A stretch of 64,000 bases of DNA from Planctomycetota bacterium (GCA_022703445.1 JAKLDR010000001.1:23884-87883), one strand, 5' to 3'. Counted from the first letter of the stretch, positions 1 to 56,138 are shown. Made by a program: numbers and translations. Notes: generated by a model from the sequence alone, not told the origin.

Positions 1-1046
1 GTGCTGAGCGGACCGGTCTCGAGCGTCTTCCAGGGCTGGAGTTCGCTTTTGCCGTCGAGGTCCATGGAGTAGACCGTTCCCGGCAGCCAGTCGGGGTTGA
101 CCGGCTTGCCGTCCGAGCCCGTCTTGCAGTAGGCCAGCGTGGCGTAGACCTTCTTCCCGTCGGGGCTGACCGCCATGTTGGTGTCGCCGCCGGCGCGCTG
201 ACTGCCGGGGAGCGGCTTCTTGCCGTTCCACTGGCGCTCCGGGCCGACCAGACGCGAGAACGGGATCCTGCCCTCCCAGGCGCCGCCGTCCCGGTCGAAG
301 CGATACACGTAGCTGCCATTGGCCAGGAAGATGCCGTTCTCCGCGCTGGTCGAGCCCATCATCAGATTGGCGTTCTTCCAGTCCAGAGGCAGGCAGTAGG
401 GGTAGACGTCCGAGTAGTTCTTCATCACCGGACGCTTGCCGGCCTCGTCCCAGTAGGAGAAGGCCTCGACCTTCTCGCGGGGCAGGTTAACCGGGAAGGG
501 GATGATGGTCTTGAGGTACTTGCCGTCCTTGTCGAAGACCTGGCAGTAGTACGAGCCGTATCCGAAGCTCTGGCTGACCACGTAGAGGTGCCCGCCCTTG
601 TCGGTGGCCATGCCCCGCACCGCGGCGATCATGTAGGGGCTGTCCGAGACCGTCCGGCCGAATTTGACGCCCAGCCCGGCGCGCACCCGGACCTTGAAGG
701 GTCCGCCCGCCGCCGGTTTCCCGAAGTCGTCGCGCGCATCCCACTCGAGCGCCTGGGCCAGCCCCGCCTTGAGAGGCTCGGGGGGAGGATTGGCGCCGCC
801 GAGCACGCCGGCGGCCAGGTGGCGGACCACCTTGCCGTCGGCGCCGAGCACGGCCACCTCCACGTCGGTCGGGGCGGCGAGGGTGAAGGCGATCTTCACC
901 TTGTCGCCGGCCTTCTCGGCCGAGGGCTTGGCGGAGAACTGTGCATCGCCGCCGCAGGCGGGGACGGCGCACAACACCACGGCCACGGCCACGGCCACGG
1001 CCAGGGCCAGGGCTGGCATTGTCGGGAGCGCTGCTGAGAGTTTCAT
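1..1046 (-). CDS. Secreted NHL-type beta-propeller family protein, paralog a (N-terminal ~348 codons; 3' end lies beyond the window edge)
   Basis: Absent from the ORF track because it is open at the window edge. Reverse-strand translation from ATG 1046..1044 gives MKLSAALPTMPALALAVAVAVAVVLCAVPACGGDAQFSAKPSAEKAGDKVKIAFTLAAPTDVEVAVLGADGKVVRHLAAGVLGG..PEPLKAGLAQALEWDARDDFGKPAAGGPFKVRVRAGLG... This is colinear with the N-termini of 13345..15873, 23137..25692, 32332..34944 and 36348..39059. I checked bases 3-440 codon by codon and found no in-frame stop; the rest was read by eye. ATGA start/stop overlap with the regulator at 1043..2140. Confidence 0.8.
   Translation of the reverse strand, partial: MKLSAALPTMPALALAVAVAVAVVLCAVPACGGDAQFSAKPSAEKAGDKVKIAFTLAAPTDVEVAVLGADGKVVRHLAAGVLGGANPPPEPLKAGLAQALEWDARDDFGKPAAGGPFKVRVRAGLGVKFGRTVSDSPYMIAAVRGMATDKGGHLYVVSQSFGYGSYYCQVFDKDGKYLKTIIPFPVNLPREKVEAFSYWDEAGKRPVMKNYSDVYPYCLPLDWKNANLMMGSTSAENGIFLANGSYVYRFDRDGGAWEGRIPFSRLVGPERQWNGKKPLPGSQRAGGDTNMAVSPDGKKVYATLAYCKTGSDGKPVNPDWLPGTVYSMDLDGKSELQPWKTLETGPLS
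978..1013. repeat. In-frame hexanucleotide tandem repeat (CACGGC x4 + CAGGGC x2) inside the signal-peptide coding region of paralog a
   Basis: Direct reading: cacggc cacggc cacggc cacggc cagggc cagggc. On the minus strand it encodes the LALAVAVAVAV hydrophobic core. Confidence 0.6.
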
Positions 1047-2140
1047 TTCCGTCCCTCCTCTTGGCGCAGCCAGGTCGCCACACTCAGGCGCAGCGGCGCC
1101 ATCCCCGGGCGGGCGCGGCGCTCGGCGAGGCGTGCCACCGCGGCCTCGGCCAATGCCGCCATGCTCCAGTTGATCGCTGCCGGGACGGCGCCCGGCGCGA
1201 AGTGCGGCAGCCAGCCGTCGGCATACTGCTCGTCGGCGCACCAGCCGACTAGCTTCACGTCGCGACCAATCTCCAGGCCCAGGTCCCGGGCGGCCGCGGC
1301 GACCTCCAGGGCGGCGCCGCGCCAGAGGGCCAGAATCCCGTCGGGTCGGTCGGCGCGGGAGAGCAGCTTCTTCGCCGCCGCTCGCGCATCCGCCTCCGAC
1401 ACCTCGGCGATGTTCGCTTCGGGGAGGTCCACGCCGGCCTTCCGCAGCGCCATGCTCGCGCCCGAGAAGCGGTCCATGCTGTGGACGCTCTCGGTTACCA
1501 GCCCCACCCAGCCCACCCGCCGGCAGCCCGCGGCCACGAGGTGCCCCGCGGCGAGCATCCCGCCGAGCGCGTTGTCCTGGAGCACGGTGTCGCAGTCCGC
1601 CTCGGGGTGCCAGGCGTCAACCATCACCGCGGCCAGGCCAGCTTTGCGGACCAGCCTGACCAGCTCCGGGCTGTGGACGTCAACGATCACGCCCCAGGCG
1701 CGGCTGGAACGGCACTGCTCGATGACGGCCTCGGCGGAGAGCTCCTTGGCGCCGGTGCCGAGGAGCGACCAGCCGCGGCGCGCGGCCGCATCCTGGAGGG
1801 AGGACAGCAGCAGGCGGTTGAAGCCGGTCCACTCGCCGCCGGGCATCTGCGCGGATAACACGTAGGCGATCGGGCAGCCGCGGTCCGGGTCGTTGGCGCG
1901 GGCCAGCACGCGGTAGCCGTGGCGGGAGTGGGCCGCGACCAGCCCCTCGGCCTCGAGCGTCTTGAGCGCCCGCCAGGCGGTCCCCGCCGACGTGCCGTGT
2001 TCCTCGCTCAGGCTCCGGACTGTCGGCGCGAACTGCCCCGGCGAGAGCTTGCCCGAGAGGATCCGCTGGCGCAGCGTCACGACCAGCGACCCCGACCCGC
2101 GGCCCATCCTGGCTGGCTCTGGTGTGCCTTTTCTTTTCAT
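1043..2140 (-). CDS. Transcriptional regulator R1, GntR-type winged HTH fused to a LacI/PBP1-like sugar-binding domain
   Basis: ORF 1043..2197 trimmed to MKRKGTPEP. HTH segment: PTVRSLSEEHGTSAGTAWRALKTLEAEGLVAAHSRHGYRV. The C-terminal region has PBP-like alternating beta-alpha segments (IAYVLS.., GVIVDV.., AVMVDA.., VGWVG..). Its stop overlaps the start of the downstream NHL paralog (ATGA). Confidence 0.85.
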   Translation of the reverse strand: MKRKGTPEPARMGRGSGSLVVTLRQRILSGKLSPGQFAPTVRSLSEEHGTSAGTAWRALKTLEAEGLVAAHSRHGYRVLARANDPDRGCPIAYVLSAQMPGGEWTGFNRLLLSSLQDAAARRGWSLLGTGAKELSAEAVIEQCRSSRAWGVIVDVHSPELVRLVRKAGLAAVMVDAWHPEADCDTVLQDNALGGMLAAGHLVAAGCRRVGWVGLVTESVHSMDRFSGASMALRKAGVDLPEANIAEVSEADARAAAKKLLSRADRPDGILALWRGAALEVAAAARDLGLEIGRDVKLVGWCADEQYADGWLPHFAPGAVPAAINWSMAALAEAAVARLAERRARPGMAPLRLSVATWLRQEEGRK

Positions 2141-2300
2141 GCGGTGTGCTCCTGGTGTCACATACACCGCATGAGCTGCGTAGTTTGCAGGAATCATGAA
2201 ATCAGTATCGAGTCGTCCAAGATACGTGTTAGCGTAATATGCGACGATGAAGACGGCGTCTCAACCTATAGTTCGCCATTTGCACCCTGGTGCCTAAGCC

Positions 2301-3359: not shown

Positions 3360-4127
3360 TCAGAACGCCTCGCCCTGGTCTCCGGGGATCGGCGCCGGGG
3401 CCTGCGGCTGAGCGCCGCCGCGGTTGCCGCGGTTGCCGCGGCCGCCGAAGTTGCCGGGCCCGCCGACATCGCCGGGGCCGCCGCCGAAGTTGCCGCGTCC
3501 GCCCTGGTAGTCGTACTCGAGCTCGTTGGATCTGATCCTGCCGCTCCAGGCTTTCACGCCGGGGAGGACCTCGTCCTTGGCCGGCACGTCGACCTCGAAG
3601 CGCAGCACGTACTTGCCGTCCGCCGGGAAGCGCACCAGGCCGGCGATGGGCTGCTCCACGACCTGCCCGGGCTTGAGCACCACCAGGGTTATGGGCTTGT
3701 CTTCGCGCTTCGCGTCCTCGGCGGGCTTCACGAAGATGCGGACCGGGCCGACCTCCATGCCAGTGGGCTCGTTGCCGCCGGGGCCGCCGCGCCCGCCGAA
3801 GCCGCCGCCCTCGGGCAGCGGGAAGTCCAGGACCACCGGCTTGTCGCCGACGTTCTTGAGCTGGAGAGTGGGCTGCTTGATCTTGCGCTCCACGGCGTTG
3901 TCGCCTCCGCCCATCCGGAAGGTGCGCTCCTTCAGGATCAGCGTGGCCTGGAGACCGCCGGCCACCTGCTCCGCCTTGACCTCCGGAGCCGCGGGCTTGT
4001 CCGCGACCGGAGCCGCCGGGCCTTCGCCGGCTGCCGCCAGGCCGCCCGTCGGCGATGCCGCCAGGGCCAGACCGAGGAACGCCATCCCGAGCGACACCCG
4101 CTGCCAGGATCCGATGAGTGCGCGCAT
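3360..4127 (-). CDS. Secreted hypothetical protein with Gly/Arg-rich (RGG/GNFGG) low-complexity segments
   Basis: The 255-aa ORF has a signal peptide ending ..LAAAGE|GPAAP. Internal GGGFGGRGGPGG, and C-terminal GGRGNFGGGPGDVGGPGNFGGRGNRGNRGG. The middle section reads as beta-rich. Confidence 0.7.
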   Translation of the reverse strand: MRALIGSWQRVSLGMAFLGLALAASPTGGLAAAGEGPAAPVADKPAAPEVKAEQVAGGLQATLILKERTFRMGGGDNAVERKIKQPTLQLKNVGDKPVVLDFPLPEGGGFGGRGGPGGNEPTGMEVGPVRIFVKPAEDAKREDKPITLVVLKPGQVVEQPIAGLVRFPADGKYVLRFEVDVPAKDEVLPGVKAWSGRIRSNELEYDYQGGRGNFGGGPGDVGGPGNFGGRGNRGNRGGAQPQAPAPIPGDQGEAF

Positions 4128-4889: not shown

Positions 4890-7169
4890 CTACATAGTAC
4901 CAATAGCCAGGACCTTGTTGTGCCCCCCAAAATGCATCTTGAGCACCCCCATCATCTTCGCGCGGGTCCCAGGGTCTGGCTCGTTTTTCGCTCGCTCAAT
5001 GACAAGATCCAGCGAGGCTTCCCCGCCAATATTCGCTACGGCCTCAAGAGCTGCCGACCGTACGATGGCGCTATCGTCCTCTAGGAGACTCTTCAGCACA
5101 GGTAACGCCCTCTCCACGCCAGCAGAAGCGCCGAGCGCTTTGGCAGCCTCAAACCGCACGGACGCATCCGAAGCCTTAGCGGCCTTTTCTGCCAACGCCA
5201 AGGCCCGTTCTTCAGTAAGCCCCCGTAGCGCCATGACCGCGCTTTCGCGCACGTCAAGAGCCCCATCATCCAACAATCTTTCAACCACGGGCAATACCCT
5301 TGCCCCTCCAGCCTTGCGCATCGCATATACCGCTGCAGCACGGACACCCCGATACTCGTCCTTGGCAAGGGCCTCCAAGACTCTCATGGTCTTCTCGTCC
5401 GGGAAGAAGCGCAGAGCGTGTATTGCAGCAATCTTGGCAGCCACGCTTTCTGCGGCCACAGCCTCCTCCAGTAGGGTTCGGGCCCGACGGTCCGAAACCA
5501 TCCCCAGTGCAGTATAGACGCTAGCCCGGGTGGATGCGTCATCGTCCAGCCGGAGCTTGCCGAGAAGGGCCAAAGCCTCATCCTTTGCTACTCGACCCAA
5601 TTGGAGAATCGCATCGCCTCGTACCGAATCGGCGGGGTCCACAAGGGCCTTCTGGACCCACGGTGCAGCCCCTATTGTCTTGATACCGTAGATCGCCCAG
5701 AACACCTCTCGCCTTACACCATCAGAAGCATCACGTGTCATTCCCTCCAGCAGCACAAGCGCCTCTTTGCCACCAATTCTGCTGAGAGCCGATGCGGCGC
5801 CACATCGAATAGTCTCCTCGGGACTCGAACAGCCCTTCCTGATGGACGCCAAGGCCTTTTCGTTGCCAATATTCCCCAGCGCCATGACGGCAGCACAACG
5901 TATGCTCTTATCTTCTACCTCATCGGCAACCATCCTGCAAAGCAACGCTGTTGCCCGCTCGTCACCTATAGCGCCAAGTTCACCGGCGATTGCGGCCCTC
6001 AGATCTTCATTCTTCGAGAGCTTCTCCAGCAGAAGACGCGCCCCATCCCCGCCGACCTCGCCCAATGCGGCGATTACGTCTAGCCGCACTCTGGGGTCGT
6101 CGTCCGCCGCGATCGGCTCCAGCAATTGCAACACAGTTGCGCCACCGACTCCCAATGCTCGTATTGCGCATCGCCTCACGGCCCGATCTGGATCGCCTGT
6201 AGCGTTCCTGATAATCTCCAGCGCACGACCTCCACCAACACGGGCAAGCGCCTGGACGGTCGATGCGCGAACTGTCGAATCAGTGTCTTTCATCTGCCTT
6301 TCCAGGATGGGGAGCGCCTTTGCAGCAGGGAGTCCTCCCAAGGCTTTGGTTGCAGCGCATCGAACCCGCACGTTCGGACTGGTTGCCAATAATTCAAGCA
6401 ACGGCAGTGCCTGGGCGTTACCGATCACTCCCAGAGCAGCCACGGCCTCCTCGCGTACGCTCACATCCTCATAATGACGTGCTATATCCAACAGCAGACC
6501 GATGCCCTTGTCGCCACCTACGAGTCCCGCTACGACAAAACCCAGTCTTCTCAGGCCCAAAATCGCCGTGCGCGAAAGCTCGACATCCTCCCGTTGTGAT
6601 GCAGCCTCTACAAGATGCATCACGAGCCTGACATCGCCAGCCAATCCGGCCAGGAACGCAGCCTCTCGCTTGGCAGCAGGATCGCCGGACTTGAACCCGG
6701 CGCTCACCCTCCGAACCTCTTCCTCTTTTGCCTGCATGTACAGCACAGCCCCACGACCGTCTTGAGACCACCACACGGCAAGGCCATTGAAGGCTGCAAC
6801 CTCGGAAATCAGCTGCCTTGAGGTCATTGGGCGAAACCGGGCATGGCTGGGCACAATAGGGTCATGGTAGTCGAACATCACCGCCACGCGGCACCGCTCC
6901 CGAAAGGCTTGCCCATCAAAGAGGGCATTGGCATTCCAGGTTCGGGATTCAACAGTCTCCTGCCCGGGACCCTCCTCTGCAGCAGCTGCGATCTGCAACC
7001 GCCCCTTCATGGTAAGAGCCGAATCCAGGAACCAGCAGGTGACGGCAACTGCCGCGGTCAAGGGCACGGCCGTCAACAACCTGCGCAGAGCGACAACAAG
7101 CCCACGCCGGAGGCATTCTTGTCCTCGCCTATGCTCCTGCCGTGAGCCGCCAGGGAGGCTAGCGTTCAT
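4890..7169 (-). CDS. Membrane-anchored HEAT-repeat (PBS-lyase-type) protein, 759 aa
   Basis: An N-terminal hydrophobic helix (LLTAVPLTAAVAVTCWFL) is followed by many ~31-residue repeats of the form D.d..VR..A..ALG.iG...Al..L, e.g. SPNVRVRCAATKALGGLPAAKALPILE and DPDRAVRRCAIRALGVGG. GC is visibly lower than in the flanks. Confidence 0.85.
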   Translation of the reverse strand: MNASLPGGSRQEHRRGQECLRRGLVVALRRLLTAVPLTAAVAVTCWFLDSALTMKGRLQIAAAAEEGPGQETVESRTWNANALFDGQAFRERCRVAVMFDYHDPIVPSHARFRPMTSRQLISEVAAFNGLAVWWSQDGRGAVLYMQAKEEEVRRVSAGFKSGDPAAKREAAFLAGLAGDVRLVMHLVEAASQREDVELSRTAILGLRRLGFVVAGLVGGDKGIGLLLDIARHYEDVSVREEAVAALGVIGNAQALPLLELLATSPNVRVRCAATKALGGLPAAKALPILERQMKDTDSTVRASTVQALARVGGGRALEIIRNATGDPDRAVRRCAIRALGVGGATVLQLLEPIAADDDPRVRLDVIAALGEVGGDGARLLLEKLSKNEDLRAAIAGELGAIGDERATALLCRMVADEVEDKSIRCAAVMALGNIGNEKALASIRKGCSSPEETIRCGAASALSRIGGKEALVLLEGMTRDASDGVRREVFWAIYGIKTIGAAPWVQKALVDPADSVRGDAILQLGRVAKDEALALLGKLRLDDDASTRASVYTALGMVSDRRARTLLEEAVAAESVAAKIAAIHALRFFPDEKTMRVLEALAKDEYRGVRAAAVYAMRKAGGARVLPVVERLLDDGALDVRESAVMALRGLTEERALALAEKAAKASDASVRFEAAKALGASAGVERALPVLKSLLEDDSAIVRSAALEAVANIGGEASLDLVIERAKNEPDPGTRAKMMGVLKMHFGGHNKVLAIGTM

Positions 7170-7610: not shown

Positions 7611-7615
7611 GCAAC

Positions 7616-8746: not shown

Positions 8747-8756
8747 GGGAGGATTG

Positions 8757-10643: not shown

Positions 10644-10664
10644 GAACCCGAGGGAGAACGCGCC

Positions 10665-44442: not shown

Positions 44443-44443
44443 C

Positions 44444-47161: not shown

Positions 47162-47171
47162 GAGAGACCCG

Positions 47172-49859
47172 ATGAGAGCCCTGAGCCTTGCCGCCACGAT
47201 CCTGGCCACGCTGACCGCCTCGGCTGTCTCCGCCGGCGAATCCGGCGGCATGCCCGAGTTGCCGGTCAACAAGTGGACCCTGCTGCCCACCAAGTCGGCG
47301 CCGCTCTACTGGCACGCCATGCCGGTCTACGCCCCGAGCCGTGGGCAGGTCTTCTTCTGGGGTCGGGACGGAGCCAGCGGCGGGGGCGGGGAGTCGGGCA
47401 TCGCCCGCAACGACATCTGCGCCTTCGACGCCGCCAAGGGCGAGTGGGTCTCCGACGTCCCCAGCGCCTCGCGCAAGGAACTGGCCGACGCCCGCAACGC
47501 CAACCTCGGCGTGGGCTTTGCCGGCCGCGCGGCCATGCTCCCCGGCGGCACGCCCGTGCCCTCGACCATCTCCTGCGGGGGAACCTGGGACTCGAAGAGG
47601 AACGAGATCGTCTACACGGTGGGCGGCCTGACCTTCGCCTACAACCCCGAGGCGAAGAAGTGGCGCGACCTCAAGGCCGAAAAGGCGCCGCGCGTCTACG
47701 GCCCCGGCGCCGGCTACGATCCGGTCAACGACGAGATCGTGCTCTTCCCGCACTTCAACGCCAACAACAACGATCTTGCCCGGGTCAACGGCAACGTGAC
47801 CATGCACCAGGGCACCTGGGTTTACAGCTTCAAGGACAACACCTGGCGCCGCGCGGGCGACTCCTTCGGTTCCGAGGAGGTGAAGAAGGCCCGCAAGGCG
47901 CTCCTGGAACTCATCGCCAAGGTCAGCGCGGCGACCGACGGCGCCTGGACGCTGCGGCGCACCAAGGACGCAGTCAAACCCGAGGATGTCCAGAAGGGCT
48001 TCGCCGAGGCGGCCGCCGAGTTAGACAGGCTGCCGATGCCCGCCGACGCGAAAGCGGTGCTCGCCAAGGCAGCCGCGCCGCTTAAGGAAGCATCCGACGC
48101 CGCCGCGGCCGGCAAGTGGGACGAGGCCCTGGCCGCCGGCGGGCGGGCCCTGTGGGTCTGCGACGAGACGCTCGACAAGCCGTTGCGGGTCGAGCCGCCC
48201 GCCCGTTGCGCCACGCCCCTGGTCTACGATCCCAAGAACCAGTGCCTGGTCATGTTCGGGGGGCACACCGGCCTCGTGCGCCTCGACCTCCAGACTCCCG
48301 AGAACAAGGGCGGCGAGCCCGGGCGCCTGAACGACACCTGGATCTACGACTGCAAGACGCGGCAGTGGCGCGACGCCTCCAAGGGCACCCGTCCGCCGCC
48401 GACGCTCTGGCCGGGCGTGGTCTACGACCCGGTTTCCGGGCTGGTGCTGCTCGTCACCCGCACCGGCAACCCCTGGAACGCCGCGGCCGGAGGCAAGGCC
48501 GCCATCTGGGGTTTCGACGCCGCCAAGATGGAGTGGAGCAAGCTCGACGAGCAGGCCTGGCCGGGGCCGGTCTGCGGCAACGCCTGGACCGGCTGGGGCA
48601 CGGTCATGCAGGAGGTGGCGCTCGACGCCAAGGCCGGACTGCTGCTTCTCCTACAGGTGCGCCGTGAGGGGAACAGTGCCTCGCAGGAAACCTTCGCGCT
48701 CAAGCTCGACGTATCGAAGATGACTCCCGCCCCCGCGCCGGCCTGGAAGGAGCCCGAGCCCATCCGGCCGCAGGTGATCCCGCCCGACGATCCGGCGGTG
48801 GTCGCCAAGCTCAAGGCGCTGCCCGCCAACAAGTGGGTCCACGTCCGGCCGCCCAACGACGGCCCCACCCGCGACTGGGGCAACGCCGCCTGCGACCCGG
48901 TCCGCGGGCACGTCTACTACTTCGGCGGCGGGCACTCCACCTATCAGGTCAACGACGTGGCCATCTACGCGCCGGGCGTCAACAAGTGGTTCTACGCCGC
49001 CGGCGACCACAACGACTGGGTCCCGCCGGCCGGCTGGGACGGCTCCAACCCCGGCCTGCGCGGCGGCAGGAACGCCGGCCACCAGCGCAACTCCTACGTG
49101 GCGCTCGACGGCCGGATGTACTCGGGGCTCGGCGCCGAGAGCCGGCGCTGGGGCGCGGAGAGCGCCAAAAGGGACTACCAGCGCTACTCCTGGTTCTACG
49201 ACGTGGACCGCGGCGGCGTCTGGCGGATGGTGCCGCTCGAGGCGAAGAAGGGCGAGGGCGTCGCCGGCCTCTGGGGCGGCACGCACCTCTCCTCGCCCGA
49301 CGGCCGGCTGTTCGGCTTCGGCGGGGCGCTCGAGCCCTACGACGGGCGCTTCTCGCCCGGCGAGATCTACTTTGCGGCGTTCGACGCCTTCCGCAACCAG
49401 CTCTCCGTGCAGAAGGTCGCGCCCGGCCCGAACTGCGATCCCAACGAGGATCGGCCGTTCTGCGTCCTTGGCGACAAGAACCAGGTCTTCTTCTACGAGT
49501 GCGCCATGGAGAACAAGGCCGTCAAGAAGCAGGGCACCTGGGTCTACGACATCAAGACCAACGCCTTCATCGACCTGAAGCCCAAGCGCCAGCCGCCAGC
49601 CGACCCGCAGACCGTCGAGTACCTCGCCGGCCAGGACGCGGTCTTCGCGGTGATCCGCGGCGGCGCGCAGTGGGTATACTCCTTCAAGGAGAAGGCATGG
49701 GCGCCGCTGCCGCTCGAGTCCGACGGCAAGCTGGGCTTCGCCACGCCCTACGCCCAGACGGTCTACTCAGCGAAGTACGGGGTGCTGGTCAACCTCGGTT
49801 ACGCCAGCGGCGGCACCGCGGTGATGCGGCCGGACGTGAGCCAGATGAAGTGGGAGTAG
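47172..49859 (+). CDS. Secreted Kelch-type double beta-propeller protein, paralog B3
   Basis: Signal ..LTASAVSAGE|SGG..LPVNKW. Closest by eye to B2 (EEVKKARKALLELIAKVSAATDGAW versus DEVKAARKGLVAVMAKVSSAMDAAW). Second module LKALPANKWVHVRPP...YFGGGHSTYQVNDV. Tail: MRPDVSQMKWE. Confidence 0.9.
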   Translation: MRALSLAATILATLTASAVSAGESGGMPELPVNKWTLLPTKSAPLYWHAMPVYAPSRGQVFFWGRDGASGGGGESGIARNDICAFDAAKGEWVSDVPSASRKELADARNANLGVGFAGRAAMLPGGTPVPSTISCGGTWDSKRNEIVYTVGGLTFAYNPEAKKWRDLKAEKAPRVYGPGAGYDPVNDEIVLFPHFNANNNDLARVNGNVTMHQGTWVYSFKDNTWRRAGDSFGSEEVKKARKALLELIAKVSAATDGAWTLRRTKDAVKPEDVQKGFAEAAAELDRLPMPADAKAVLAKAAAPLKEASDAAAAGKWDEALAAGGRALWVCDETLDKPLRVEPPARCATPLVYDPKNQCLVMFGGHTGLVRLDLQTPENKGGEPGRLNDTWIYDCKTRQWRDASKGTRPPPTLWPGVVYDPVSGLVLLVTRTGNPWNAAAGGKAAIWGFDAAKMEWSKLDEQAWPGPVCGNAWTGWGTVMQEVALDAKAGLLLLLQVRREGNSASQETFALKLDVSKMTPAPAPAWKEPEPIRPQVIPPDDPAVVAKLKALPANKWVHVRPPNDGPTRDWGNAACDPVRGHVYYFGGGHSTYQVNDVAIYAPGVNKWFYAAGDHNDWVPPAGWDGSNPGLRGGRNAGHQRNSYVALDGRMYSGLGAESRRWGAESAKRDYQRYSWFYDVDRGGVWRMVPLEAKKGEGVAGLWGGTHLSSPDGRLFGFGGALEPYDGRFSPGEIYFAAFDAFRNQLSVQKVAPGPNCDPNEDRPFCVLGDKNQVFFYECAMENKAVKKQGTWVYDIKTNAFIDLKPKRQPPADPQTVEYLAGQDAVFAVIRGGAQWVYSFKEKAWAPLPLESDGKLGFATPYAQTVYSAKYGVLVNLGYASGGTAVMRPDVSQMKWE

Positions 49860-49874
49860 GCGGAGAACGCTTGC

Positions 49875-51317
49875 ATGGCTTTCGCGCTGGACAAACCCGA
49901 CAGGAACCGCGGCATCATCGAGGTCACCGGGGAGGTGCTCCACCGGATGGCCGAGGGACTGGGCTTCAACTGGTACTCCTGCTACGGGCCGGAGACCTAT
50001 CCCGCACCCGGCGACGACGGGCGCTGGGCGCGGATCTTCGCCCACGCCGAATGGCTGAACATGCGCTTCATCCGCTTCGGTCAGTCCGCGGGCAGGATCA
50101 GCGACGACGCCGGAACGTTCCGCCCGGACGACCTGTCGTTCGACCAACTCCGGCGCGTGAACGGTTGGGCCGAACGCTGGGGCGCTTCGATCGTCCTGGA
50201 TCCGTTCGGCATTCCCAAGGCGTTTCAGTACGAGCCGTGGCCGGGGGCGCCGGGCGTCTGGGGGCGCGAGGGGAGCTACCACCTGGGCGTCCGCGACATC
50301 GACGCCTACGTCGGCCGCTTCGTGGTTCCCTACGTGCGGCATGTGGTCAGGGAACTCGGCTGCAGGGCCGTGACGTGGTTCAACCACGTTAACGAGCCCC
50401 TGCGCGGGGCCGTGTGCGCCACGCCTCCGGGCATCGACGATCATGCCCGGTACGTCGAGGTGCTCAAGGCCATCCGGCAGGGGCTCGACGAGGCGGGGCT
50501 GTCCGGCATCGGCAACATGGGACCGGACACGCACACCCACCACTACTGGCCGATCGACCACATGCTGGAGATCGGCGCGGACCCCGATCCGGCGATCCAG
50601 GCCTATTGCATGCATCACTACCAGAGCCGCTTCGACTGGGACGCGCCGACGGGCGTGGTCAACTCCAAGCCCATGACCGAGACCGTCGAGCAGCACCTCA
50701 GGCGGTATTGCCGTTACGCCCAAGGGAAGCGCAAGCCGTACCTGGTCACGGAGATCGGCATGTTCCATTTCGGGTGGGCCACCGGCGACCCGGCGGGCAT
50801 CGCCCGTCACGACAACTCCGTCCTGGAGGCCGAATTCATCGTCCGCGGCATGGCCGAGGGCGCCGACGGGTTCCTGCGCTGGGCGTGGCTCAACCCCGGC
50901 ACGCACGACGGCTGGTGGCAGCTGATTGACACGGTTGGCGGCAGCGACGCACCGCTGCGGGACCCGTACCATGGCTACGGGACGCTCTATCGCTACGTGT
51001 CGCGGAGGCCGGAAATCGTGAAGGTGGAAGTCGCACAGGAAACGGGCGGCGGGCCGCGGACGATCCACGCCACGGCGACGATCAACGCCGACGGCTCGCG
51101 CACGTTGCTGGTGGTCAACGATTCCTACGCGACCTGCGCGCCGGTCACGGTCAGGCTTCCCACCGGCGGGGCGGCGGTCGTGCGCAAGATCGTCAACGAC
51201 CCGGTCCGGAAGCACCACGAATGCGAGCCGCTGGCGGTCTCGGGCGGGGCCATCGAGATAGCCGACGCCCTGTCCCCGATGAGTCTGACCGTGTACACGA
51301 CATGCGAGAAGTCGTGA
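49875..51317 (+). CDS. Cytoplasmic clan GH-A (TIM-barrel) glycoside hydrolase, family not assigned
   Basis: No signal peptide. WFNHVNEP (acid/base NEP) and PYLVTEIG (nucleophile TE) sit at typical spacing. The C-terminal ~100 aa are beta-rich (sandwich). Family-level assignment needs a dbCAN search. Confidence 0.75.
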   Translation: MAFALDKPDRNRGIIEVTGEVLHRMAEGLGFNWYSCYGPETYPAPGDDGRWARIFAHAEWLNMRFIRFGQSAGRISDDAGTFRPDDLSFDQLRRVNGWAERWGASIVLDPFGIPKAFQYEPWPGAPGVWGREGSYHLGVRDIDAYVGRFVVPYVRHVVRELGCRAVTWFNHVNEPLRGAVCATPPGIDDHARYVEVLKAIRQGLDEAGLSGIGNMGPDTHTHHYWPIDHMLEIGADPDPAIQAYCMHHYQSRFDWDAPTGVVNSKPMTETVEQHLRRYCRYAQGKRKPYLVTEIGMFHFGWATGDPAGIARHDNSVLEAEFIVRGMAEGADGFLRWAWLNPGTHDGWWQLIDTVGGSDAPLRDPYHGYGTLYRYVSRRPEIVKVEVAQETGGGPRTIHATATINADGSRTLLVVNDSYATCAPVTVRLPTGGAAVVRKIVNDPVRKHHECEPLAVSGGAIEIADALSPMSLTVYTTCEKS

Positions 51318-51339
51318 GCAACTACCAGGGAGGACGGGC

Positions 51340-52542
51340 ATGCACTGGAGAATCGTGACGGCAGCCGTTCTGGCCCTGCTGGCCATCGATGGCCCGGGCC
51401 ATCGTACCCGAGCCGGCGAGAGCGCCCCGGCGGATCAGGCCGTCGACGTCTGGATCCCTAGCGGCCAGTCCAACGCGTGCGGACGGGGACGACCCCCGGG
51501 CCCGCCGGCCAGTGCGGCTGTGGAGGCCTTCGACCCCAGGGGCGGCAAGTGGGTTCCGGCCCGCGATCCTCTTCCGGGCATGGGCACCTCAGGCGTCGGT
51601 CCCTGGCAGGCGGCGGCGGCGGAGTACGCCGCCAGAACCGGCCGCAAGGTCCGGCTGGCCGGCTGGGCGGAGGGCGGCATCAGCATCGACTTGTGGGACG
51701 CGGCCAAGGGCAGCGGCTGGCGCGCGCTCTCCGGCGTGCTGGAGCGCGCCGGCAAAGGAGCCGGCGTCCTTCTGTGGTACCAGGGAGAAGCCGACTGCGG
51801 CAAGGCGCCCGACAGGTACCTGGCCCAGTTCAAGGACCTGACCGAGCGCGTCCGGAAGGGCTGCGACAACCCGGGGATGACGGTGGTCGTGGTCCAACTC
51901 TCCGCCTACCAGGCAGGCTACGACCTGGGCAAGGACCCGCCCGCGAAGAAGCCTTTGGCCAGGGGCGACAAGAGCCAGATCATGCTCATGCGCGAGACCC
52001 AGCGCCAGTGCGTCCTCGGTGACGACCGGGCCATTCTGGTCACGGCCATGGGGCGCAAGACGCAGGACTACTGGCACCTCAGCACCGAGGGGCAGACCGA
52101 ACTGGGCGGGGAGATCGGCCGGGCGCTGGCCGCCCGGTTGCACAAGGTCGACACCGGCTGGCCTGGGCCGGTGCTGGACGCGGCCGTGCTGGGCGACGAC
52201 GGCAAGACCGTGATTGCGCACTTCGCCGAGGTCAAGAAGCTGACCGGGCTCGCGGCCGCCGACTTCGGCTTGGTGGGAACAGGCGCCAAGGCCGCGGAGG
52301 TCCAGGCGGCGGCGGCCAAGGCCGAGGCGTTGGGCGGGACGCTGGTCAAACTGACCTTCGAAGAGCCGGTCAAGCTGCCGGCCGCCCTGGTCTACGGTCT
52401 GGGCAGCGCGCCCGCCGCTGGGCTGGTCGACGAGGCCGGCAACCGGGCGCCCGCCGTGCAGCTGGAGATAACCCAGGGCAAGGCCCCGGAAGACAAGGAG
52501 ACCGCCGCGCCCAACGGGGCGGGAGCGGCGGCCCGGCGCTGA
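51340..52542 (+). CDS. Secreted SASA/DUF303-type carbohydrate O-acetylesterase-like protein 1
   Basis: Signal ..HRTRAGE|SAP. IPSGQSNACG (GQSN catalytic Ser motif) and LLWYQGEADC are characteristic of sialate O-acetylesterase-like enzymes. More divergent than the next gene. Confidence 0.75.
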   Translation: MHWRIVTAAVLALLAIDGPGHRTRAGESAPADQAVDVWIPSGQSNACGRGRPPGPPASAAVEAFDPRGGKWVPARDPLPGMGTSGVGPWQAAAAEYAARTGRKVRLAGWAEGGISIDLWDAAKGSGWRALSGVLERAGKGAGVLLWYQGEADCGKAPDRYLAQFKDLTERVRKGCDNPGMTVVVVQLSAYQAGYDLGKDPPAKKPLARGDKSQIMLMRETQRQCVLGDDRAILVTAMGRKTQDYWHLSTEGQTELGGEIGRALAARLHKVDTGWPGPVLDAAVLGDDGKTVIAHFAEVKKLTGLAAADFGLVGTGAKAAEVQAAAAKAEALGGTLVKLTFEEPVKLPAALVYGLGSAPAAGLVDEAGNRAPAVQLEITQGKAPEDKETAAPNGAGAAARR

Positions 52543-52577
52543 TGCGCCCGGACTTCAGCCAGTTGAAGCGGAGTTAG
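52542..52577 (+). pseudogene. 12-codon relic of a Kelch-paralog 3' end (MRPDFSQLKRS-stop)
   Basis: atgcgcccggacttcagccagttgaagcggagttag versus the B2 3' end atgcgcccggacttcagccaggtgaagtgggaatag (47126..47161). A 23-nt exact run (tgatgcgcccggacttcagccag) is shared, and I count 30 of 36 nt identical. It lies in the spacer between the two esterase genes. Confidence 0.7.
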
Positions 52578-52592
52578 CGAAGAGAGGTCGGC

Positions 52593-53948
52593 ATGGTCCC
52601 CAAGCATTTCGCCATGGTCATGGTTTCGGTGTTGTCCTTTGGCACCGGAGCTCTCTGCGCCGCCGAGCCGGCCGCGGCTCCCGCCGACGTCAGGCTCCCC
52701 GGCATCTTCAGGGACAACATGGTCCTGCAGCGCGAGATGCCCGTGCCGGTCTGGGGCATGGCTGCTCCCGGCGGAGAGGTGACGGTCAGGATCGCCGGTC
52801 AGGAGGCCAAGGGCCAGGCCGACGCGAAAGGGAACTGGTCGGTGAAGCTCGCCGCCATGGACGCTGGCGGACCGCACGAGATGACGGTCTCCGGCAGGAA
52901 CACGCTGACTCTCAAGAACGTCATGGTTGGCGAGGTCTGGCTCTGCTCCGGACAGTCGAACATGGAGAAGCCCGCATACGCCGGGCACCCGATCCCCGAC
53001 GCCAAGCATCCCGATCTCCGGTTGCTCAATGGGCCGTGGGTCTCCTGGGTGGCCTGCGATCCGAACAGCGTGGCCCGTTTCTCGGGGGCGGCCTACTTCT
53101 TCGGCCGCGAGGTTCAGGAGAAGCTTAAGGTCCCAGTGGGGCTGATCCTCGGCGCGTCGGGCGGCACGCGGATCGAGCACTGGACGCCGGCGGTCGGGTA
53201 CGAGGGGCCCGCCGGGATCGGCAAGGCCAGGGCCGAGGACGGCGGCTGCTACAAGGAGCGGATCCGGCCCTTCGCCCCGTTCGCCATCCGGGGGGTCATC
53301 TGGTACCAGGGCGAGAGCAACTGCGACGGCGCCGATCATGATTTCTACACGAAGAGGATGGAGGCGCTGGTCGGCGGCTGGCGGAAAGTCTGGAAGCAGG
53401 GCGACTTCCCCTTCTACTTCGTGCAGCTCGCCCCATGGAAGTACGACTCCGCCAAGCCGCAGATGCTGCCGCTGATGTGGGAGGCCCAGACGAAGGCGCT
53501 GAAGATTCCCAACACCGGGATGGCGGTGATAACCGACATGGGCAATGCTGAGGATATCCATCTAGATGCCCGCGGTCAGTCCGTGGTCGGCCACCGCCTG
53601 GCCCTGCTGGCGCTGGCCAGGACTTACGGCCAGGACAAGCTGGTGTGCTCCGGGCCGGTCTACAAGTCTATGGCCGTTGAGGGCGGCAAGGTTCGCCTGA
53701 AGTTCGAGAGCGTCGGCGGCGGATTGGCTTCGCGCGACGGCAAGCCTCTCGACTGCTTCGAGATCGCTGGCGAGGACCGCAAGTTCGTCCCCGCCAAGGC
53801 GGAGATCGACGGAGAGGGCGTGGTCGTGTCCGCCGATGGCGTCACCGCCCCGGCCGCGGTGCGCTTCGGCTGGTCCAACACCGCCATGCCCAACCTGATC
53901 AACAAGGAGAAGCTGCCGGCGGCGCCGTTCCGCACGGACAGCTGGTGA
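52593..53948 (+). CDS. Secreted SASA-type sialate/carbohydrate 9-O-acetylesterase
   Basis: Signal ..GALCAAE|PAA. LPGIFRDNMVLQRE, GEVWLCSGQSNME, GVIWYQGESN and FPFYFVQLAPW are the textbook motifs of this family. Confidence 0.9.
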   Translation: MVPKHFAMVMVSVLSFGTGALCAAEPAAAPADVRLPGIFRDNMVLQREMPVPVWGMAAPGGEVTVRIAGQEAKGQADAKGNWSVKLAAMDAGGPHEMTVSGRNTLTLKNVMVGEVWLCSGQSNMEKPAYAGHPIPDAKHPDLRLLNGPWVSWVACDPNSVARFSGAAYFFGREVQEKLKVPVGLILGASGGTRIEHWTPAVGYEGPAGIGKARAEDGGCYKERIRPFAPFAIRGVIWYQGESNCDGADHDFYTKRMEALVGGWRKVWKQGDFPFYFVQLAPWKYDSAKPQMLPLMWEAQTKALKIPNTGMAVITDMGNAEDIHLDARGQSVVGHRLALLALARTYGQDKLVCSGPVYKSMAVEGGKVRLKFESVGGGLASRDGKPLDCFEIAGEDRKFVPAKAEIDGEGVVVSADGVTAPAAVRFGWSNTAMPNLINKEKLPAAPFRTDSW

Positions 53949-53976
53949 AGCCCCGGCCAGGAAGGAGAAGGAGCCC

Positions 53977-54891
53977 ATGCCCAGGACCGTGAAGCTGACC
54001 CGTTACGACGGCAACCCCATCCTCCGGCCGATCCCGGAGCACACCTTCGAGGCCCAGAACGTCTCGAACGCCGCGGCCATAGTCCACGACGGCCGGGTGC
54101 ATCTGCTCTACCGATCGGAGGGCTTCGAGAACCGCTGGCCGAACACCAAGACCTGGCCGAAGACCTACCTGGGCCTGGCCACGTCGAGGGACGGCCTGCA
54201 CATCGACGAGCGCCTGGACCGCCCAGTGATCGGCCCGGAGCCGGCCGGCGAGTACGGCTGCTGGGGCATCCAGGACCCGCGCCTCGTGAAGATCGGCGAC
54301 ACCTTCTACGCCACGACCGCCGGCGTCTCGCCCTGGGGCGACCGGGTGATCCTCTACACCTCGAAGGACCTGCGCTCGTGGGAGAAGCGCGCGCTGATCA
54401 AGCCCGAACACGAGATGCGCACCGCCGGGATGTTCCCTGAGAAGTTCGGCGACGACTACTGCTTCCTGCTCCGGCCCGATCCCAACATGTGGATCGGTTA
54501 CACCCCGGACTTCGTCCACTGGCGCGGCTACAAGCTGATGTTCGAGGTCAAGCGCGGCTCGTGGTACGGCCGGAAGCTGGGTCTGGGCGCGCCGCCCATC
54601 CGCCAGGACGACGCCTGGCTGCTCTTCTGGCACGGCAAGGCCGACACCCAGGACGGCACCTATTCGCTCGGAGTCATGTGGCTGGACCTCGAGGACCCGG
54701 GCCGCATCATTCGGGTCCAGGAAGAGCCCATCCTCCGCGCCGAGCTCGAGTGGGAGCGGGTCGGCTACTACCCGAACGTTGCCTACACCTGCGGCGCGGT
54801 GCAGCTCGGCGACCAGTACCTCGTCTACTACGGGGCGGCCGACCGGGTCCTGGCCGTGGCCAAGGTCCCGGTCGCCGACTGCCGGCTGTGA
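53977..54891 (+). CDS. GH130-family beta-mannoside phosphorylase/hydrolase (cytoplasmic)
   Basis: LTRYDGNPILRP..FEAQNVSNAAAIVHDGRVHLLYRSEG...YLGLATSRDGLHIDE..PVIGPE...GIQDPRLVKIGDTFY...YYGAADRVLAVA matches the five-bladed GH130/DUF377 pattern. Confidence 0.85.
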   Translation: MPRTVKLTRYDGNPILRPIPEHTFEAQNVSNAAAIVHDGRVHLLYRSEGFENRWPNTKTWPKTYLGLATSRDGLHIDERLDRPVIGPEPAGEYGCWGIQDPRLVKIGDTFYATTAGVSPWGDRVILYTSKDLRSWEKRALIKPEHEMRTAGMFPEKFGDDYCFLLRPDPNMWIGYTPDFVHWRGYKLMFEVKRGSWYGRKLGLGAPPIRQDDAWLLFWHGKADTQDGTYSLGVMWLDLEDPGRIIRVQEEPILRAELEWERVGYYPNVAYTCGAVQLGDQYLVYYGAADRVLAVAKVPVADCRL

Positions 54892-54923
54892 GTGGGCCAG
54901 TCAGAGGAGAACAAGGAGAGAGC

Positions 54924-56138
54924 ATGTACGACCTGAAGCTGTCCGCATCCGAGAAGGCCGAGTACCTGGAGGCCGCGCGACTGGCCGGCTACTGGCTGGT
55001 CAACACCCAGAACACGCCGGCGCGGCCCTGGGGCCCGTACTACGTGGAGGACAGCGCCGACGCCGGCCGCTTCCTGGAGAAGACCTGCCCCTCGCGCGAC
55101 TACCGCAAGCCGGCCGGGGTGTGGCTGACCGGCCTCTACCTCTGCAGCCTGGCCGAGCTGCCGGAGGCGCCGGTGCTCGACAAGGGCCTCTACCAGAACG
55201 CCCTGAAGCTCGGCGCGAAGTACCTGAAGAGCCTGCAGTGCTTCGACGCCCGCTGGCCGAAGGCGGTCGGCGGATTCCACGAGGTCTACCCGGGGCACGA
55301 GTACTCCGCGCCGCGCGACGCGGCCACCGGGGCCTACGCCCTGCTAGCACTTTACCTCGAGACCGGCGAGAAGGACTGCCTGGATCGGACCCTCCGTTTC
55401 GCCGAGTGGTACTCGACCCACGGCTCCGACCGCGACGGGTTCCCCTGGGACGACTTCGATCTCCCGAGCGGCAAGGGCACCAGCCGGAAGCGCGGCGACT
55501 GGCAGGCCGGCGGCGCGCTCCTCTACTACCAGCTCTGGATGGTCACCGGCGACGCGCGCTGGAAGAAGGCCCTCAGGCGCGTTCTCGATGTGCTCGTGAA
55601 GATCTGTGCCGGTGGGCCGAAGGGCGACACCGCCTATACCTTCCACGGCGACTGCACCATCTCGGTGGGCAACGACGACTTCGCCAACACCGTGCTCCTG
55701 GCCGGCCACGAGGTCTTCGGGGAGCAGCGCTACCTGGAGCTCTTCGCCTCGCGGGTCCGCACCGAGCTCGAGCGCCAGGACGAGCGCGGTGCCTTCCCGG
55801 GCTACGGCGGGACCTTCGTGACCGCGCTCGAGCTCCTCGAGGCCCTGGACTACTCCGCCGCCAAGGGCGTCGAGATCATGCCCGAAGCGGAGCTTCTCGA
55901 GCCGCTCATGCGCGCGGCGCGCTTCAGCCTCTCGCTCCAGGAGAAGTCGAGCCCCGACCGCTGGATGCTCGGCGGGGTCTACGGCCAGAGCAACTACGCC
56001 CACGCCCGCGACGTGGTCCACGGCCGCGACTGCGGCTACGGCCTGCAGCTCTGGCTGCGCCTCGCCGGCCATCGGGCCTCGACCTACACGGTGCTGGGCT
56101 GGGAGCGGAGGGGCTCCGGGAGGAAGGGCCGGCCCTGA
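54924..56138 (+). CDS. Cytoplasmic hypothetical protein, probably all-alpha (alpha/alpha-barrel-like)
   Basis: ORF 54489..56138 trimmed to MYDLKLSASEKAEYLEAARLAGYWL after the GGAGAG site. The upstream part overlaps GH130 in another frame and is Arg-rich. Repeated helical W/Y-rich segments (GAYALLALYLETGEKDCLDRTLRFAEWY; GALLYYQLWMVTGDARWKKAL). The fold call is tentative. Confidence 0.7.
   Translation: MYDLKLSASEKAEYLEAARLAGYWLVNTQNTPARPWGPYYVEDSADAGRFLEKTCPSRDYRKPAGVWLTGLYLCSLAELPEAPVLDKGLYQNALKLGAKYLKSLQCFDARWPKAVGGFHEVYPGHEYSAPRDAATGAYALLALYLETGEKDCLDRTLRFAEWYSTHGSDRDGFPWDDFDLPSGKGTSRKRGDWQAGGALLYYQLWMVTGDARWKKALRRVLDVLVKICAGGPKGDTAYTFHGDCTISVGNDDFANTVLLAGHEVFGEQRYLELFASRVRTELERQDERGAFPGYGGTFVTALELLEALDYSAAKGVEIMPEAELLEPLMRAARFSLSLQEKSSPDRWMLGGVYGQSNYAHARDVVHGRDCGYGLQLWLRLAGHRASTYTVLGWERRGSGRKGRP

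Follow-up and report, generated by a model that had tools for sequence, protein, structure and literature searches.

Two families of predicted exported double beta-propellers form the constant part of regulator-headed gene cassettes with carbohydrate-active neighbours in an uncultured Planctomycetota bacterium

Planctomycetota and related bacteria play a major part in breaking down complex glycans in aquatic, soil and engineered environments. Glycan degradation without the SusC/SusD machinery is poorly understood, and large parts of the loci concerned encode proteins without an assigned function. Such loci can be compared with the SusC/SusD-type polysaccharide-utilisation loci (PULs) of Bacteroidota, which are present as many paralogous, separately regulated cassettes per genome, and in which a constant, paralog-rich exported component is combined with variable glycoside hydrolases, lyases, esterases and sulfatases, sugar induction being presumed. 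A locus that is alike in these respects was analysed in this study. It occupies positions 1-56138 of a 64,000-nucleotide stretch (hereafter the window) from an uncultured Planctomycetota bacterium (GCA_022703445.1, JAKLDR010000001.1:23884-87883), and comprises four units of a genome-wide modular system. Each unit has its own one-component regulator, one to five exported double-propeller proteins of approximately 850-900 amino acids (aa), and a variable set of carbohydrate-active genes. The locus is also similar to the carbohydrate-active enzyme (CAZyme) gene clusters described for Planctomycetota and Verrucomicrobiota in work on fucoidan degradation (PMC11685898) and in surveys (PMC11131199), which are likewise SusC/D-independent, combine genes for exported and cytoplasmic proteins, have sulfatases as frequent neighbours, and share the same phylum-level setting.

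Four cassettes and two propeller families

Genes were called by the GC content at the third codon position (GC3), and starts were refined with Shine-Dalgarno-like motifs and signal peptides, the latter being judged by eye from the N-termini. Open reading frames (ORFs) without a Pfam match in the first scans were given U-numbers, which correspond to the initial ORF length in residues. Exact matches in public data assign the window to a metagenome-assembled Planctomycetota bacterium with locus tags PK280_*. Its GC content is approximately 70 %, falling to 0.61 between 4 and 8 kb. A preliminary description of the stretch had proposed four operon-like cassettes, and these were recovered with the same coordinates, gene counts and compactness (Table 1). 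In the first cassette, on the reverse strand, R1 is followed by NHLa, which is truncated by the window edge and whose start overlaps the R1 stop by 4 nt. The R2 cassette (7616..29726) continues with GH123a, GH123b, NHLb, KelA, KelB, U656, NHLc, U867 and SGNH; the R4 cassette (40282..32332, reverse strand) with NHLe, U437 and NHLd; and the R3 cassette (40576..56138) with KelC, KelD, KelE, U480, SASA1, SASA2, GH130 and U549. The gaps within cassettes range from -19 to +50 nt, the exception being the 132 nt between R3 and KelC. The right end of the locus was also placed correctly at 56138, and is followed by genes for a B12-dependent radical SAM protein, LpxD, a permease and a thioredoxin. A scan for terminators at the cassette ends gave no more sites than were found in shuffled sequence.

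According to the Pfam scans, all four regulators join a GntR helix-turn-helix to a periplasmic-binding (sugar-binding) domain of the LacI type. R4 and R3 are divergently oriented. R2 and R3 are 85 % identical (BLAST all-versus-all), and approximately 80 nt upstream are common to the two genes (7500..7616 and 40460..40576), including an inverted repeat, CTATT-N13/14-AATAG. The identity of the proteins together with the shared upstream sequence indicates a recent duplication of one regulator and its control region, and the repeat is a candidate operator that would have been duplicated with the regulator gene.

Ten genes of the locus, spanning approximately 24.7 kb, belong to just two families of paralogs, here called NHL-type and Kelch-type (Kel). 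As proposed previously, five members of each family, and no more, were found in the window by BLAST all-versus-all and with family hidden Markov models (HMMs) built from approximately 95 homologs each, with E-values from 1e-21 down to 0 for the NHL-type members. The NHL-type paralogs are 29-53 % identical over their full length, the highest value being that of NHLb and NHLc; the truncated NHLa, in which the signal peptide and an Ig-like start are visible, is 34-40 % identical to the others. The Kel paralogs are 24-45 % identical. All ten proteins start with a hydrophobic segment that resembles a signal peptide. The NHL repeat model PF01436 matched the four full-length NHL-type copies at 23.8-49.3 bits (cutoff 20), with about one canonical repeat in each, and a weak match to a FlgD-Ig domain was also observed in this family. 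All five Kel proteins matched the Kelch model PF24681 at 57-74 bits (cutoff 50), in agreement with their predicted propeller fold. The Kelch repeat models named for the "galactose oxidase central domain" also matched Kel, generically. When PDB sequences were searched with the Kel profile, no chain of the AA5 copper radical oxidases was found at E<=1, and none was among the top 50 Foldseek matches.

Models of one member of each family were built with AlphaFold from the family alignments. That of NHLc (predicted local distance difference test, pLDDT, 91.4; predicted template modelling score, pTM, 0.92) contains a signal peptide, an Ig-like domain at residues 25-118 and two propellers, and that of KelD (pLDDT 92.9, pTM 0.92) contains two propellers, five helices being inserted at residues 239-338. 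On the basis of these confident models, both families are predicted to be exported tandem double beta-propellers. No specific fold relative was found by Foldseek for either model. NHLc matched only generic tandem propellers of the PDB, with a query-relative template modelling score (TM-score) of at most 0.38. A single propeller of KelD superposes on the Kelch domains of LZTR1 and KLHDC2/3 (target-normalised TM-score 0.56-0.66), and the top match of KelD was tricorn protease, which is generic at a TM-score of 0.17. Tricorn protease, LRP6, EML1, WD40 proteins and teneurins were all rejected as meaningful relatives given their low TM-scores. Profile searches of PDB sequences were likewise limited to repeat-level matches: the NHL-type profile reached TRIM71, Pizza designs and PknD through its canonical repeat, as well as peptidylglycine amidating lyase, and the Kel profile reached muskelin and KLHDC2. 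Searches of the same sequences with KelD or NHLc alone returned no relative beyond generic repeats. NCBIfam contained no family for either group of propellers or for the other unassigned proteins of the locus. The earlier view of these propellers as functionally undescribed is thereby upheld across Pfam, NCBIfam, PDB profiles and Foldseek, and no mention of either family was found in the searchable literature, including the Planctomycetota polysaccharide-degradation studies PMC11685898 and PMC11131199.

Several polar residues that lie outside the repeat motifs show no variation, namely K690, C745-x-C747 and R759 in the NHL-type family and, in Kel, H639 and the H590 of a GGGH motif. These residues are kept across paralogs that are only 25-30 % identical.

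Two decayed relics of the families had been claimed. Only one was found by tblastn with all ten paralogs and by an unfiltered HMM scan of six-frame pieces of at least 25 aa. Its sequence, ...YVGDSANRRVVGLDPTWKAEESC*, agrees with the C-terminal consensus of the NHL-type family (Table 1). A Kel match at 4150-4329 was rejected as a second relic (E=0.46), and U656 and U437, which had zero matches to the family HMMs, were rejected as degenerate propellers.

Two features of the N-termini were observed. In NHLa, NHLd and NHLe, a cysteine lies shortly past the hydrophobic segment, and these three proteins may be lipoproteins. In addition, the signal peptides of nearly all exported proteins of the locus end in ...A/S/P-A-G-E (SAGE, QAGE, PAGE, AAGE, FAGE), for example in NHLb, KelA, KelB, NHLc, KelC, KelD, KelE, GH123a and SGNH, which suggests a shared cleavage or sorting signal.

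Table 1. Features of the 56-kb locus, by position in the window
Feature	Coordinates	Strand	Description	Evidence and remarks
NHLa	1..1046	-	NHL-type, cut by window edge (N-terminal 348 aa present)	family HMM E=1.8e-80
R1	1043..2197	-	regulator; true start maybe 2140	GntR 45.7 bits, Peripla_BP_3 59.2 bits
NHL relic	~2304-2450	-	relic of NHL-family C-terminus, last ~45 codons	HMM positions 790-838, independent E-value 1e-8
Small ORF	3360..4127	-	exported, no family; membership of the system uncertain	coding by GC3; hydrophobic N-terminus
HEAT	4890..7169	-	HEAT-repeat protein, 759 aa	HEAT_2 257 bits; GC 0.61 vs ~0.70 elsewhere
R2	7616..8746	+	regulator, heads ten-gene cassette	GntR 51.1 bits, Peripla_BP_3 92.8 bits
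GH123a	8757..10643	+	GH123-like, exported	GH123_cat 76.7 bits (cutoff 23.1), Glyco_hydro_123_N_2 50.1 bits; signal peptide
GH123b	10665..13334	+	GH123-like, exported, extra ~300-aa N-terminal region	GH123_cat 62.4 bits, N_2 49.3 bits
NHLb	13345..15873	+	Ig + NHL-type double propeller	family HMM E=1e-283; NHL repeat 49.3 bits
KelA	15882..18476	+	Kelch-type	family HMM E=3e-180; PF24681 59.3 bits (cutoff 50); signal peptide MAMKHLAFLL...
KelB	18488..21139	+	Kelch-type, most divergent copy	family HMM E=4e-138; PF24681 71.3 bits
U656	21170..23140	+	656 aa, no family, without signal peptide	stop overlaps NHLc start by 4 nt
NHLc	23137..25692	+	Ig + NHL-type double propeller, modelled member	AlphaFold model
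U867	25705..28308	+	divergent heparinase II/III-like, without signal peptide	Hepar_II_III_C 13.9 bits (cutoff 24)
SGNH	28290..29726	+	SGNH/GDSL esterase, exported, last in R2 cassette	Lipase_GDSL_2 47.8 bits
ECF sigma	29944..32277	+	sigma factor, linker, one transmembrane helix, ~500-aa ectodomain without family; between two cassettes	Sigma70_r2, r4
NHLd	32332..34944	-	Ig + NHL-type double propeller	family HMM E=1.7e-217; NHL 38.3 bits
U437	34994..36307	-	exported, 437 aa, no family	coding by GC3; hydrophobic N-terminus
NHLe	36348..39059	-	Ig + NHL-type double propeller	family HMM E=3.5e-173; NHL 23.8 bits
R4	39083..40282	-	regulator	GntR 51.1 bits, Peripla_BP_3 93.5 bits; GGAGG upstream of start 40282
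R3	40576..41706	+	regulator, heads eight-gene cassette	GntR 55.8 bits, Peripla_BP_3 84.8 bits
KelC	41839..44442	+	Kelch-type	family HMM E=1e-194; PF24681 72.2 bits
KelD	44444..47161	+	Kelch-type, modelled member	AlphaFold model
KelE	47172..49859	+	Kelch-type	45 % identical to KelD; PF24681 57.2 bits
U480	49875..51317	+	possible clan GH-A (GH5/GH30-like), without signal peptide	weak assignment
SASA1	51340..52542	+	SASA-type carbohydrate O-acetylesterase, exported	PF03629 84.2 bits
SASA2	52593..53948	+	SASA-type carbohydrate O-acetylesterase, exported	PF03629 93.3 bits
GH130	53977..54891	+	beta-1,2-mannoside phosphorylase-like, without signal peptide	PF04041 146.4 bits
U549	54924..56138	+	alpha/alpha-toroid-like, without signal peptide	via homologs; window protein has no Pfam match

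Distribution and genomic association

Both families are almost confined to uncultured Planctomycetota (Phycisphaerae, Planctomycetia and Brocadiia), Kiritimatiellia and Victivallales. The exceptions were the cultured gammaproteobacterium Motiliproteus sp. SC1-56 and one Myxococcales metagenome-assembled genome (MAG). All homologs are annotated as hypothetical or generic repeat proteins. In an exhaustive search of 1.84 billion representatives with the Kel profile, 1197 matches were obtained at E<=1e-30. Among the best 150 of these, approximately 30 were near-full-length in a single stretch and the remainder were fragments or generic multi-Kelch proteins, so the complete Kel architecture is uncommon.

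The same design was present on three more contigs of the same organism, family membership being assigned with the HMMs. In L082, the order is HEAT, regulator, GH123-like, three NHL genes, GH123-like and HEAT; in L083, a regulator is followed by three unknowns, three NHL genes, another unknown and a divergent Kelch gene; and L084 consists of four NHL genes, a regulator and a divergent Kelch gene, with no recognised degradative enzyme. This one genome has at least 15 copies of the NHL-type family and at least 5-7 of the Kelch-type family. In distant genomes, the families were found in comparable company. L002 contains a regulator, a U656 homolog, two Kel genes and a homolog of U549 that is GH76-like; L004 a regulator, an NHL gene, two shorter relatives, another NHL gene, heparinase II/III and a GH123-like gene; and L006 a GH123-like and a heparinase-like gene, followed by a sigma-NHL fusion, NHL relatives, an amidohydrolase and a sulfatase. 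In L001, Kel has GH95-like, malectin and GH35-like genes nearby. The association with carbohydrate-active genes proposed for the window thus recurs both elsewhere in the same genome and in distant genomes of the Planctomycetota-Verrucomicrobiota-Chlamydiota (PVC) group. The families are dispersed, yet always in regulator-headed, glycan-flavoured modules, and neither matched a well-characterised non-glycan function in Pfam, NCBIfam, the PDB or Foldseek.

The shorter proteins between full-length NHL genes (533-604 aa; L004 12646-15914 and L006 13410-15224) are listed without Pfam annotation, and are truncated relatives of the NHL-type family (family HMM E 1e-72 to 1e-172).

A Pfam scan was performed on 162 nearest neighbours of Kel genes in approximately 38 other loci. 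Sulfatases and GH123_cat proteins (6 each), PQQ-type propellers (4), GntR/periplasmic-binding regulators (3-4), NHL proteins (3), malectin (2), a fucosidase (1) and a 3-keto-disaccharide hydrolase (1) were found, these being raw counts without a genome-wide background. Glycosyltransferase and methyltransferase neighbours also recur at other Kel loci. A third propeller family, PQQ_2-type and of approximately 1000 aa, was observed beside Kel in L010 (6980-9982), L011, L012 and L038, sometimes with a methyltransferase domain, as in the gene adjoining P0074 in L005. It suggests that these MAGs encode a broader set of large exported propellers.

Motiliproteus sp. SC1-56 (NZ_JAEMGS010000002.1) was the sole cultured organism in which a full-length Kel homolog was found. 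Its Kel gene (around 93-96 kb of this record) lies in a cluster for polysaccharide biosynthesis and modification (L028 3336-18809) with two GT2 glycosyltransferases, a GT4, a GT4/GT1-deacetylase fusion, two sulfotransferases, a pyruvyl transferase and acetyltransferases, and directly downstream of a GH127/pectic-acid-lyase-like gene. A helical-hairpin motif was the only similarity between the latter and U549 (E=0.014), too little to call the two homologs.

Possible roles of the propellers

Across phyla, both families consistently occur together with regulators of the sugar type and carbohydrate-active genes, and a link between the propellers and glycans is probable and has good support. As the preliminary description proposed, the locus has the traits of a polysaccharide-utilisation system without SusC/D: no TonB-dependent receptor, Plug or SusD match was obtained when the ORFs of 1-64 kb were scanned with Pfam, the propellers carry export signals, the regulators have LacI-type sugar-binding domains, and the neighbours are carbohydrate-active. 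In such a system, a sugar or oligosaccharide freed from a complex glycan would bind the regulator and switch the cassette on. The exported propellers would then cleave or modify the polymer in the periplasm or at the cell surface, and their paralogs might differ in linkage specificity; the esterases would strip acetyl groups, and the enzymes without signal peptides would finish the fragments.

We infer, tentatively, that the exported propellers could be previously unrecognised glycan-cleaving or glycan-modifying enzymes. This role is slightly favoured over binding because a carbohydrate-binding module (CBM)-like domain is appended to some NHL-type members, because invariant polar residues exist outside the repeat motifs, and because the context in Motiliproteus resembles that of polymer-processing enzymes. 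Such enzymes are common in exopolysaccharide gene clusters, and CBM-type modules are usually found with catalytic domains. The appended module was observed in four NHL-family clusters (P0179, P0192, P0199 and P0224; approximately 1360 aa), as an N-terminal extension of approximately 550 aa with a CBM9-like domain, which exceeded the Pfam cutoff in two of the four. Catalysis is also favoured by L084, where the propellers stand essentially alone with their regulator and, if the operon is catabolic, must do the work.

Several observations weigh against an enzymatic role in glycan breakdown. No glycoside hydrolase or lyase was present among the top 50 Foldseek matches, nor a propeller one in the PDB profile searches. 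No kinship to the propeller CAZymes named earlier, those of GH74, PL11, PL22 and PL24/25, was detected: there was no BNR/GH74 match in Pfam and no GH74 chain in the PDB profile searches or the top 50 fold matches, and in whole-chain searches no profile match to PL11, PL22, PL24/25 or PL42 was obtained, nor was any of these among the 50 best matches by fold. The majority of the conserved residues sit in the structural motifs of the Kelch or NHL repeats, and every conserved residue is also retained in Kel and NHL modules that form the ectodomains of sigma factors. The Foldseek matches of KelD include BT4663 and BT4673, which would be precedents for non-catalytic, glycan-sensing double propellers. 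Many Kel neighbours elsewhere are unrelated to glycans, the raw counts only indicate an enrichment of CAZymes, and the context of Kel in Motiliproteus is biosynthetic, not catabolic. Lastly, the locus resembles a CAZyme gene cluster in combining two GH123-like genes, GH130, two SASA genes and SGNH in operons headed by GntR/periplasmic-binding regulators, but a sugar transporter, which such clusters may also contain, is absent, since no ATP-binding cassette, major facilitator superfamily, TonB-dependent or phosphotransferase-system domain was found in the Pfam scans of 1-56138. It is doubtful whether both families are new glycoside hydrolase (GH) or polysaccharide lyase (PL) families at the core of a SusC/D-independent foraging system, regulated cassette by cassette and widespread in uncultured Planctomycetota and other PVC bacteria, in which the sigma-fused versions would be membrane-tethered transcription factors that sense the substrate.

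The propellers might instead be non-catalytic glycan binders, which would capture, present or sense polysaccharide at the surface or in the enlarged planctomycetal periplasm; this would not be surprising, but is on balance unlikely. The propellers would then be the constant, paralog-rich part of the system, like SusD and the surface glycan-binding proteins, and the variable neighbouring enzymes would perform the chemistry. In keeping with this, both propeller families are constant while the enzyme content varies among cassettes and genomes, and conservation is spread across all domains, largely in repeat motifs, and marks no single obvious active site. BT4663 and BT4673, with a TM-score of 0.18-0.24 to KelD, are periplasmic double-propeller sensor domains of Bacteroides hybrid two-component systems (HTCS). 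However, this likeness is generic, and no Reg_prop, Y_Y_Y, kinase, receiver or AraC-type Pfam domain was detected in the window proteins. In addition, operons such as L084 would carry four or five binders and zero recognised enzymes, and a CBM9-like module on a mere binder would be unusual.

A further argument for a sensor role comes from extracytoplasmic function (ECF) sigma factors. One of these is encoded in the window between two cassettes (Sigma70_r2 44.2 bits, r4_2 39.8 bits, TIGR02937 71.8 bits; transmembrane helix at residues 271-289), and is an ECF sigma factor with a C-terminal extension. Elsewhere, the same sigma-linker-transmembrane part is fused to a complete Kel or NHL module (P0074, P0081, P0100 and P0176; L005 and L006), which thus replaces the ectodomain, in the position of a sensor. 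The linker of the window protein is homologous to those of the sigma-Kel and sigma-NHL fusions (E=6e-65 for the window sigma factor against L006), and the ectodomain of the window protein differs. Planctomycetal ECF modules are known to duplicate and insert into unrelated coding regions, which generates heterogeneous C-terminal extensions (PMC7671368). Since arbitrary extensions arise by insertion in this way, the fusions show that the modules face outwards but are weak evidence for sensing, and the weight given to them was lowered on this account.

It is less likely that the system acts on the cell's own glycans, with propellers that trim, modify, polymerise, export or organise an exopolysaccharide or envelope glycan, and esterases and hydrolase-like proteins that remodel this polymer. 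The glycosyltransferase/sulfotransferase polysaccharide cluster of Motiliproteus, the glycosyltransferase and methyltransferase neighbours at other loci, and the lack of a sugar transporter or central sugar-catabolic gene in the 56-kb locus are consistent with such a role. Against it, no glycosyltransferase, polymerase, flippase or export gene is present in the window, GH130 phosphorylases are a catabolic, energy-conserving type of enzyme, a LacI-type sugar-binding regulator in each cassette is typical of substrate-induced catabolic operons, and the sulfatase, fucosidase and GH123-like neighbours elsewhere are degradative. That the propellers have no carbohydrate role at all, serving as adhesins, scaffolds, lactonase- or oxidase-type small-molecule enzymes or protease-associated gating domains whose proximity to CAZymes merely reflects the high density of such genes in Planctomycetota, is still less likely: characterised Kelch and NHL propellers are mostly protein-interaction modules, weak SGL (gluconolactonase-like) matches occur in the NHL-type family, tricorn protease heads the KelD list, and many of the neighbours, counted without background frequency, are unrelated to glycans, but the tricorn and SGL matches (the latter 21-35 bits over one or two blades) are generic, regulators with sugar-binding domains lie directly upstream in several unrelated genomes, gaps of 1-30 nt link the propellers to GH123-like, heparinase-like, esterase, GH130 and GH76-like genes, the NHL-type family includes CBM9-like fusions, and the context is one of polysaccharides even in a gammaproteobacterium.

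Accompanying genes and comparison with known systems

Most of the enzymes named in the preliminary description were confirmed by Pfam at the scores of Table 1, including the two GH123-like proteins, the SGNH esterase, the two SASA O-acetylesterases and GH130. The two GH123-like proteins are 44 % identical, and their GH123_cat alignments reach only the first 160-179 of 324 model positions (1-179 for GH123a). The signal-peptide start of SGNH, at 28290, overlaps U867 by 19 nt. GH130 matched phosphorylases over its full length, and was closer in PDB sequence matches to beta-1,2-mannobiose (7fip, E=8.5e-66) and 1,2-beta-oligomannan phosphorylases (9fj8, E=1e-59) than to beta-1,4-mannan enzymes. Beta-1,2-mannosides are an unusual substrate class.

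Two assignments were less secure. The heparinase II/III-like call holds at the family level and not for U867 itself, which scored below the cutoff and matched no PDB sequence, whether searched singly or as a profile. The 14 members of its small family all matched Hepar_II_III_C at E<=0.1 (best E 1.1e-7), which justifies the label "divergent heparinase II/III-like". The clan GH-A hydrolase call for U480 was marginal: Cellulase (GH5, E=0.025 over residues 63-309) and Glyco_hydro_30C (E=0.021) were both under the Pfam cutoffs, and no PDB sequence matched. U656, U867, U480, GH130 and U549 lack a signal-peptide-like N-terminus, and the enzymes among them (heparinase-like, GH130 and toroid/GH-A-like) are presumably cytoplasmic.

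The substrate was previously suggested to be an acetylated heteroglycan that contains mannose, hexosamine and uronate. It is weakly constrained by the present results, in which the mannose part is narrowed by GH130 to beta-1,2-mannosides, the hexosamine part rests on GH123-like proteins that cover half of the catalytic model, and the uronate part on the very divergent U867. O-acetyl groups and beta-1,2-mannosides would be the firmest hints, and apply to the R3 cassette.

The unassigned proteins U656 and U549 look like obligate partners of Kel. U656 had zero matches in Pfam, NCBIfam and the PDB, and has a homolog in the distant L002 (5143-7110, E=3e-205), between the regulator and two Kel genes. 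Homologs of U549 follow Kel genes in L002 (12684-13874, E=2.6e-221), L007 and L022; that of L002 matched GH76 at 27.4 bits (cutoff 25.9) over part of the model, with weak matches to GH47, GH88 and GH127. Both proteins are far better conserved in L002 than the Kel genes that they flank, and their operon positions are kept. U437 had zero matches in Pfam or NCBIfam.

Three genes of the locus were absent from the preliminary description, namely the ECF sigma factor, the small exported ORF, for which zero matches were obtained in Pfam or NCBIfam, and the HEAT-repeat protein. The HEAT ORF was considered as the gene called "NHL a" and rejected in favour of 1..1046. HEAT proteins of similar size flank cassettes in L082 (1085-3154 and 18439-20724) and, in another genome, in L001 (14316-15563), and HEAT-repeat proteins occur three times among the Kel-gene neighbours in other loci; they may be a further recurrent component of the cassettes.

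These proteins are a sound lead towards new carbohydrate-active or carbohydrate-binding families. As enzymes, the propellers would add families to CAZy and show Kelch and NHL propellers in new catalytic roles; as binders, they would be the first proteins proposed as the PVC equivalent of the surface glycan-binding proteins of Bacteroidota. In both cases, further work can build on defined proteins and residues, on a carrier in culture (Motiliproteus sp. SC1-56), and on beta-1,2-mannosides and O-acetylation as partial clues to the substrate.

The individual components have partial counterparts in described proteins. As in the HTCS sensors, whose domains recognise oligosaccharides, an exported tandem double propeller is present, and some Kel and NHL modules are likewise placed outside the membrane on a transcription factor, here an ECF sigma; unlike in the HTCS, the sensor, kinase and receiver signatures are lacking and most members are free secreted proteins. 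In GH74, PL11, PL22, PL24/25, PL42 and GH130, the propeller fold serves glycan cleavage, and the two propellers of GH74 form a substrate cleft, comparable to the architecture predicted here. The blades in the present families are of the Kelch and NHL types, in contrast to the Asp-box or other blades of those enzymes, to which no profile or top-50 fold match leads. The ECF sigma factors of PMC7671368 carry one sigma-linker-transmembrane module on unrelated extensions, as do the window sigma factor and the fusions. As far as could be established, extensions made up of the two propeller families are not reported in that study. In the fusions, the extension is an intact and conserved member of a family that is otherwise found as a free protein in sugar-regulated operons.

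At the level of whole loci, the Planctomycetota and Verrucomicrobiota studies (PMC11685898, PMC11131199) catalogue recognised CAZy families, with Kelch, NHL and propeller proteins and GntR regulators unmentioned, whereas unrecognised families make up approximately 45 % of the present locus. Compared with the Bacteroidota PULs, the locus is without SusC, SusD or a transporter gene, its regulators are cytoplasmic one-component proteins of the GntR/LacI type in place of hybrid two-component or ECF/anti-sigma regulators, and its constant components are double beta-propellers known by predicted fold only. The general kind of system, that of multiple separately regulated glycan-processing clusters, is known. 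What is new is the combination of the lack of SusC/D, regulators of the GntR/LacI type, and a core of two expanded double-propeller families without a characterised relative.

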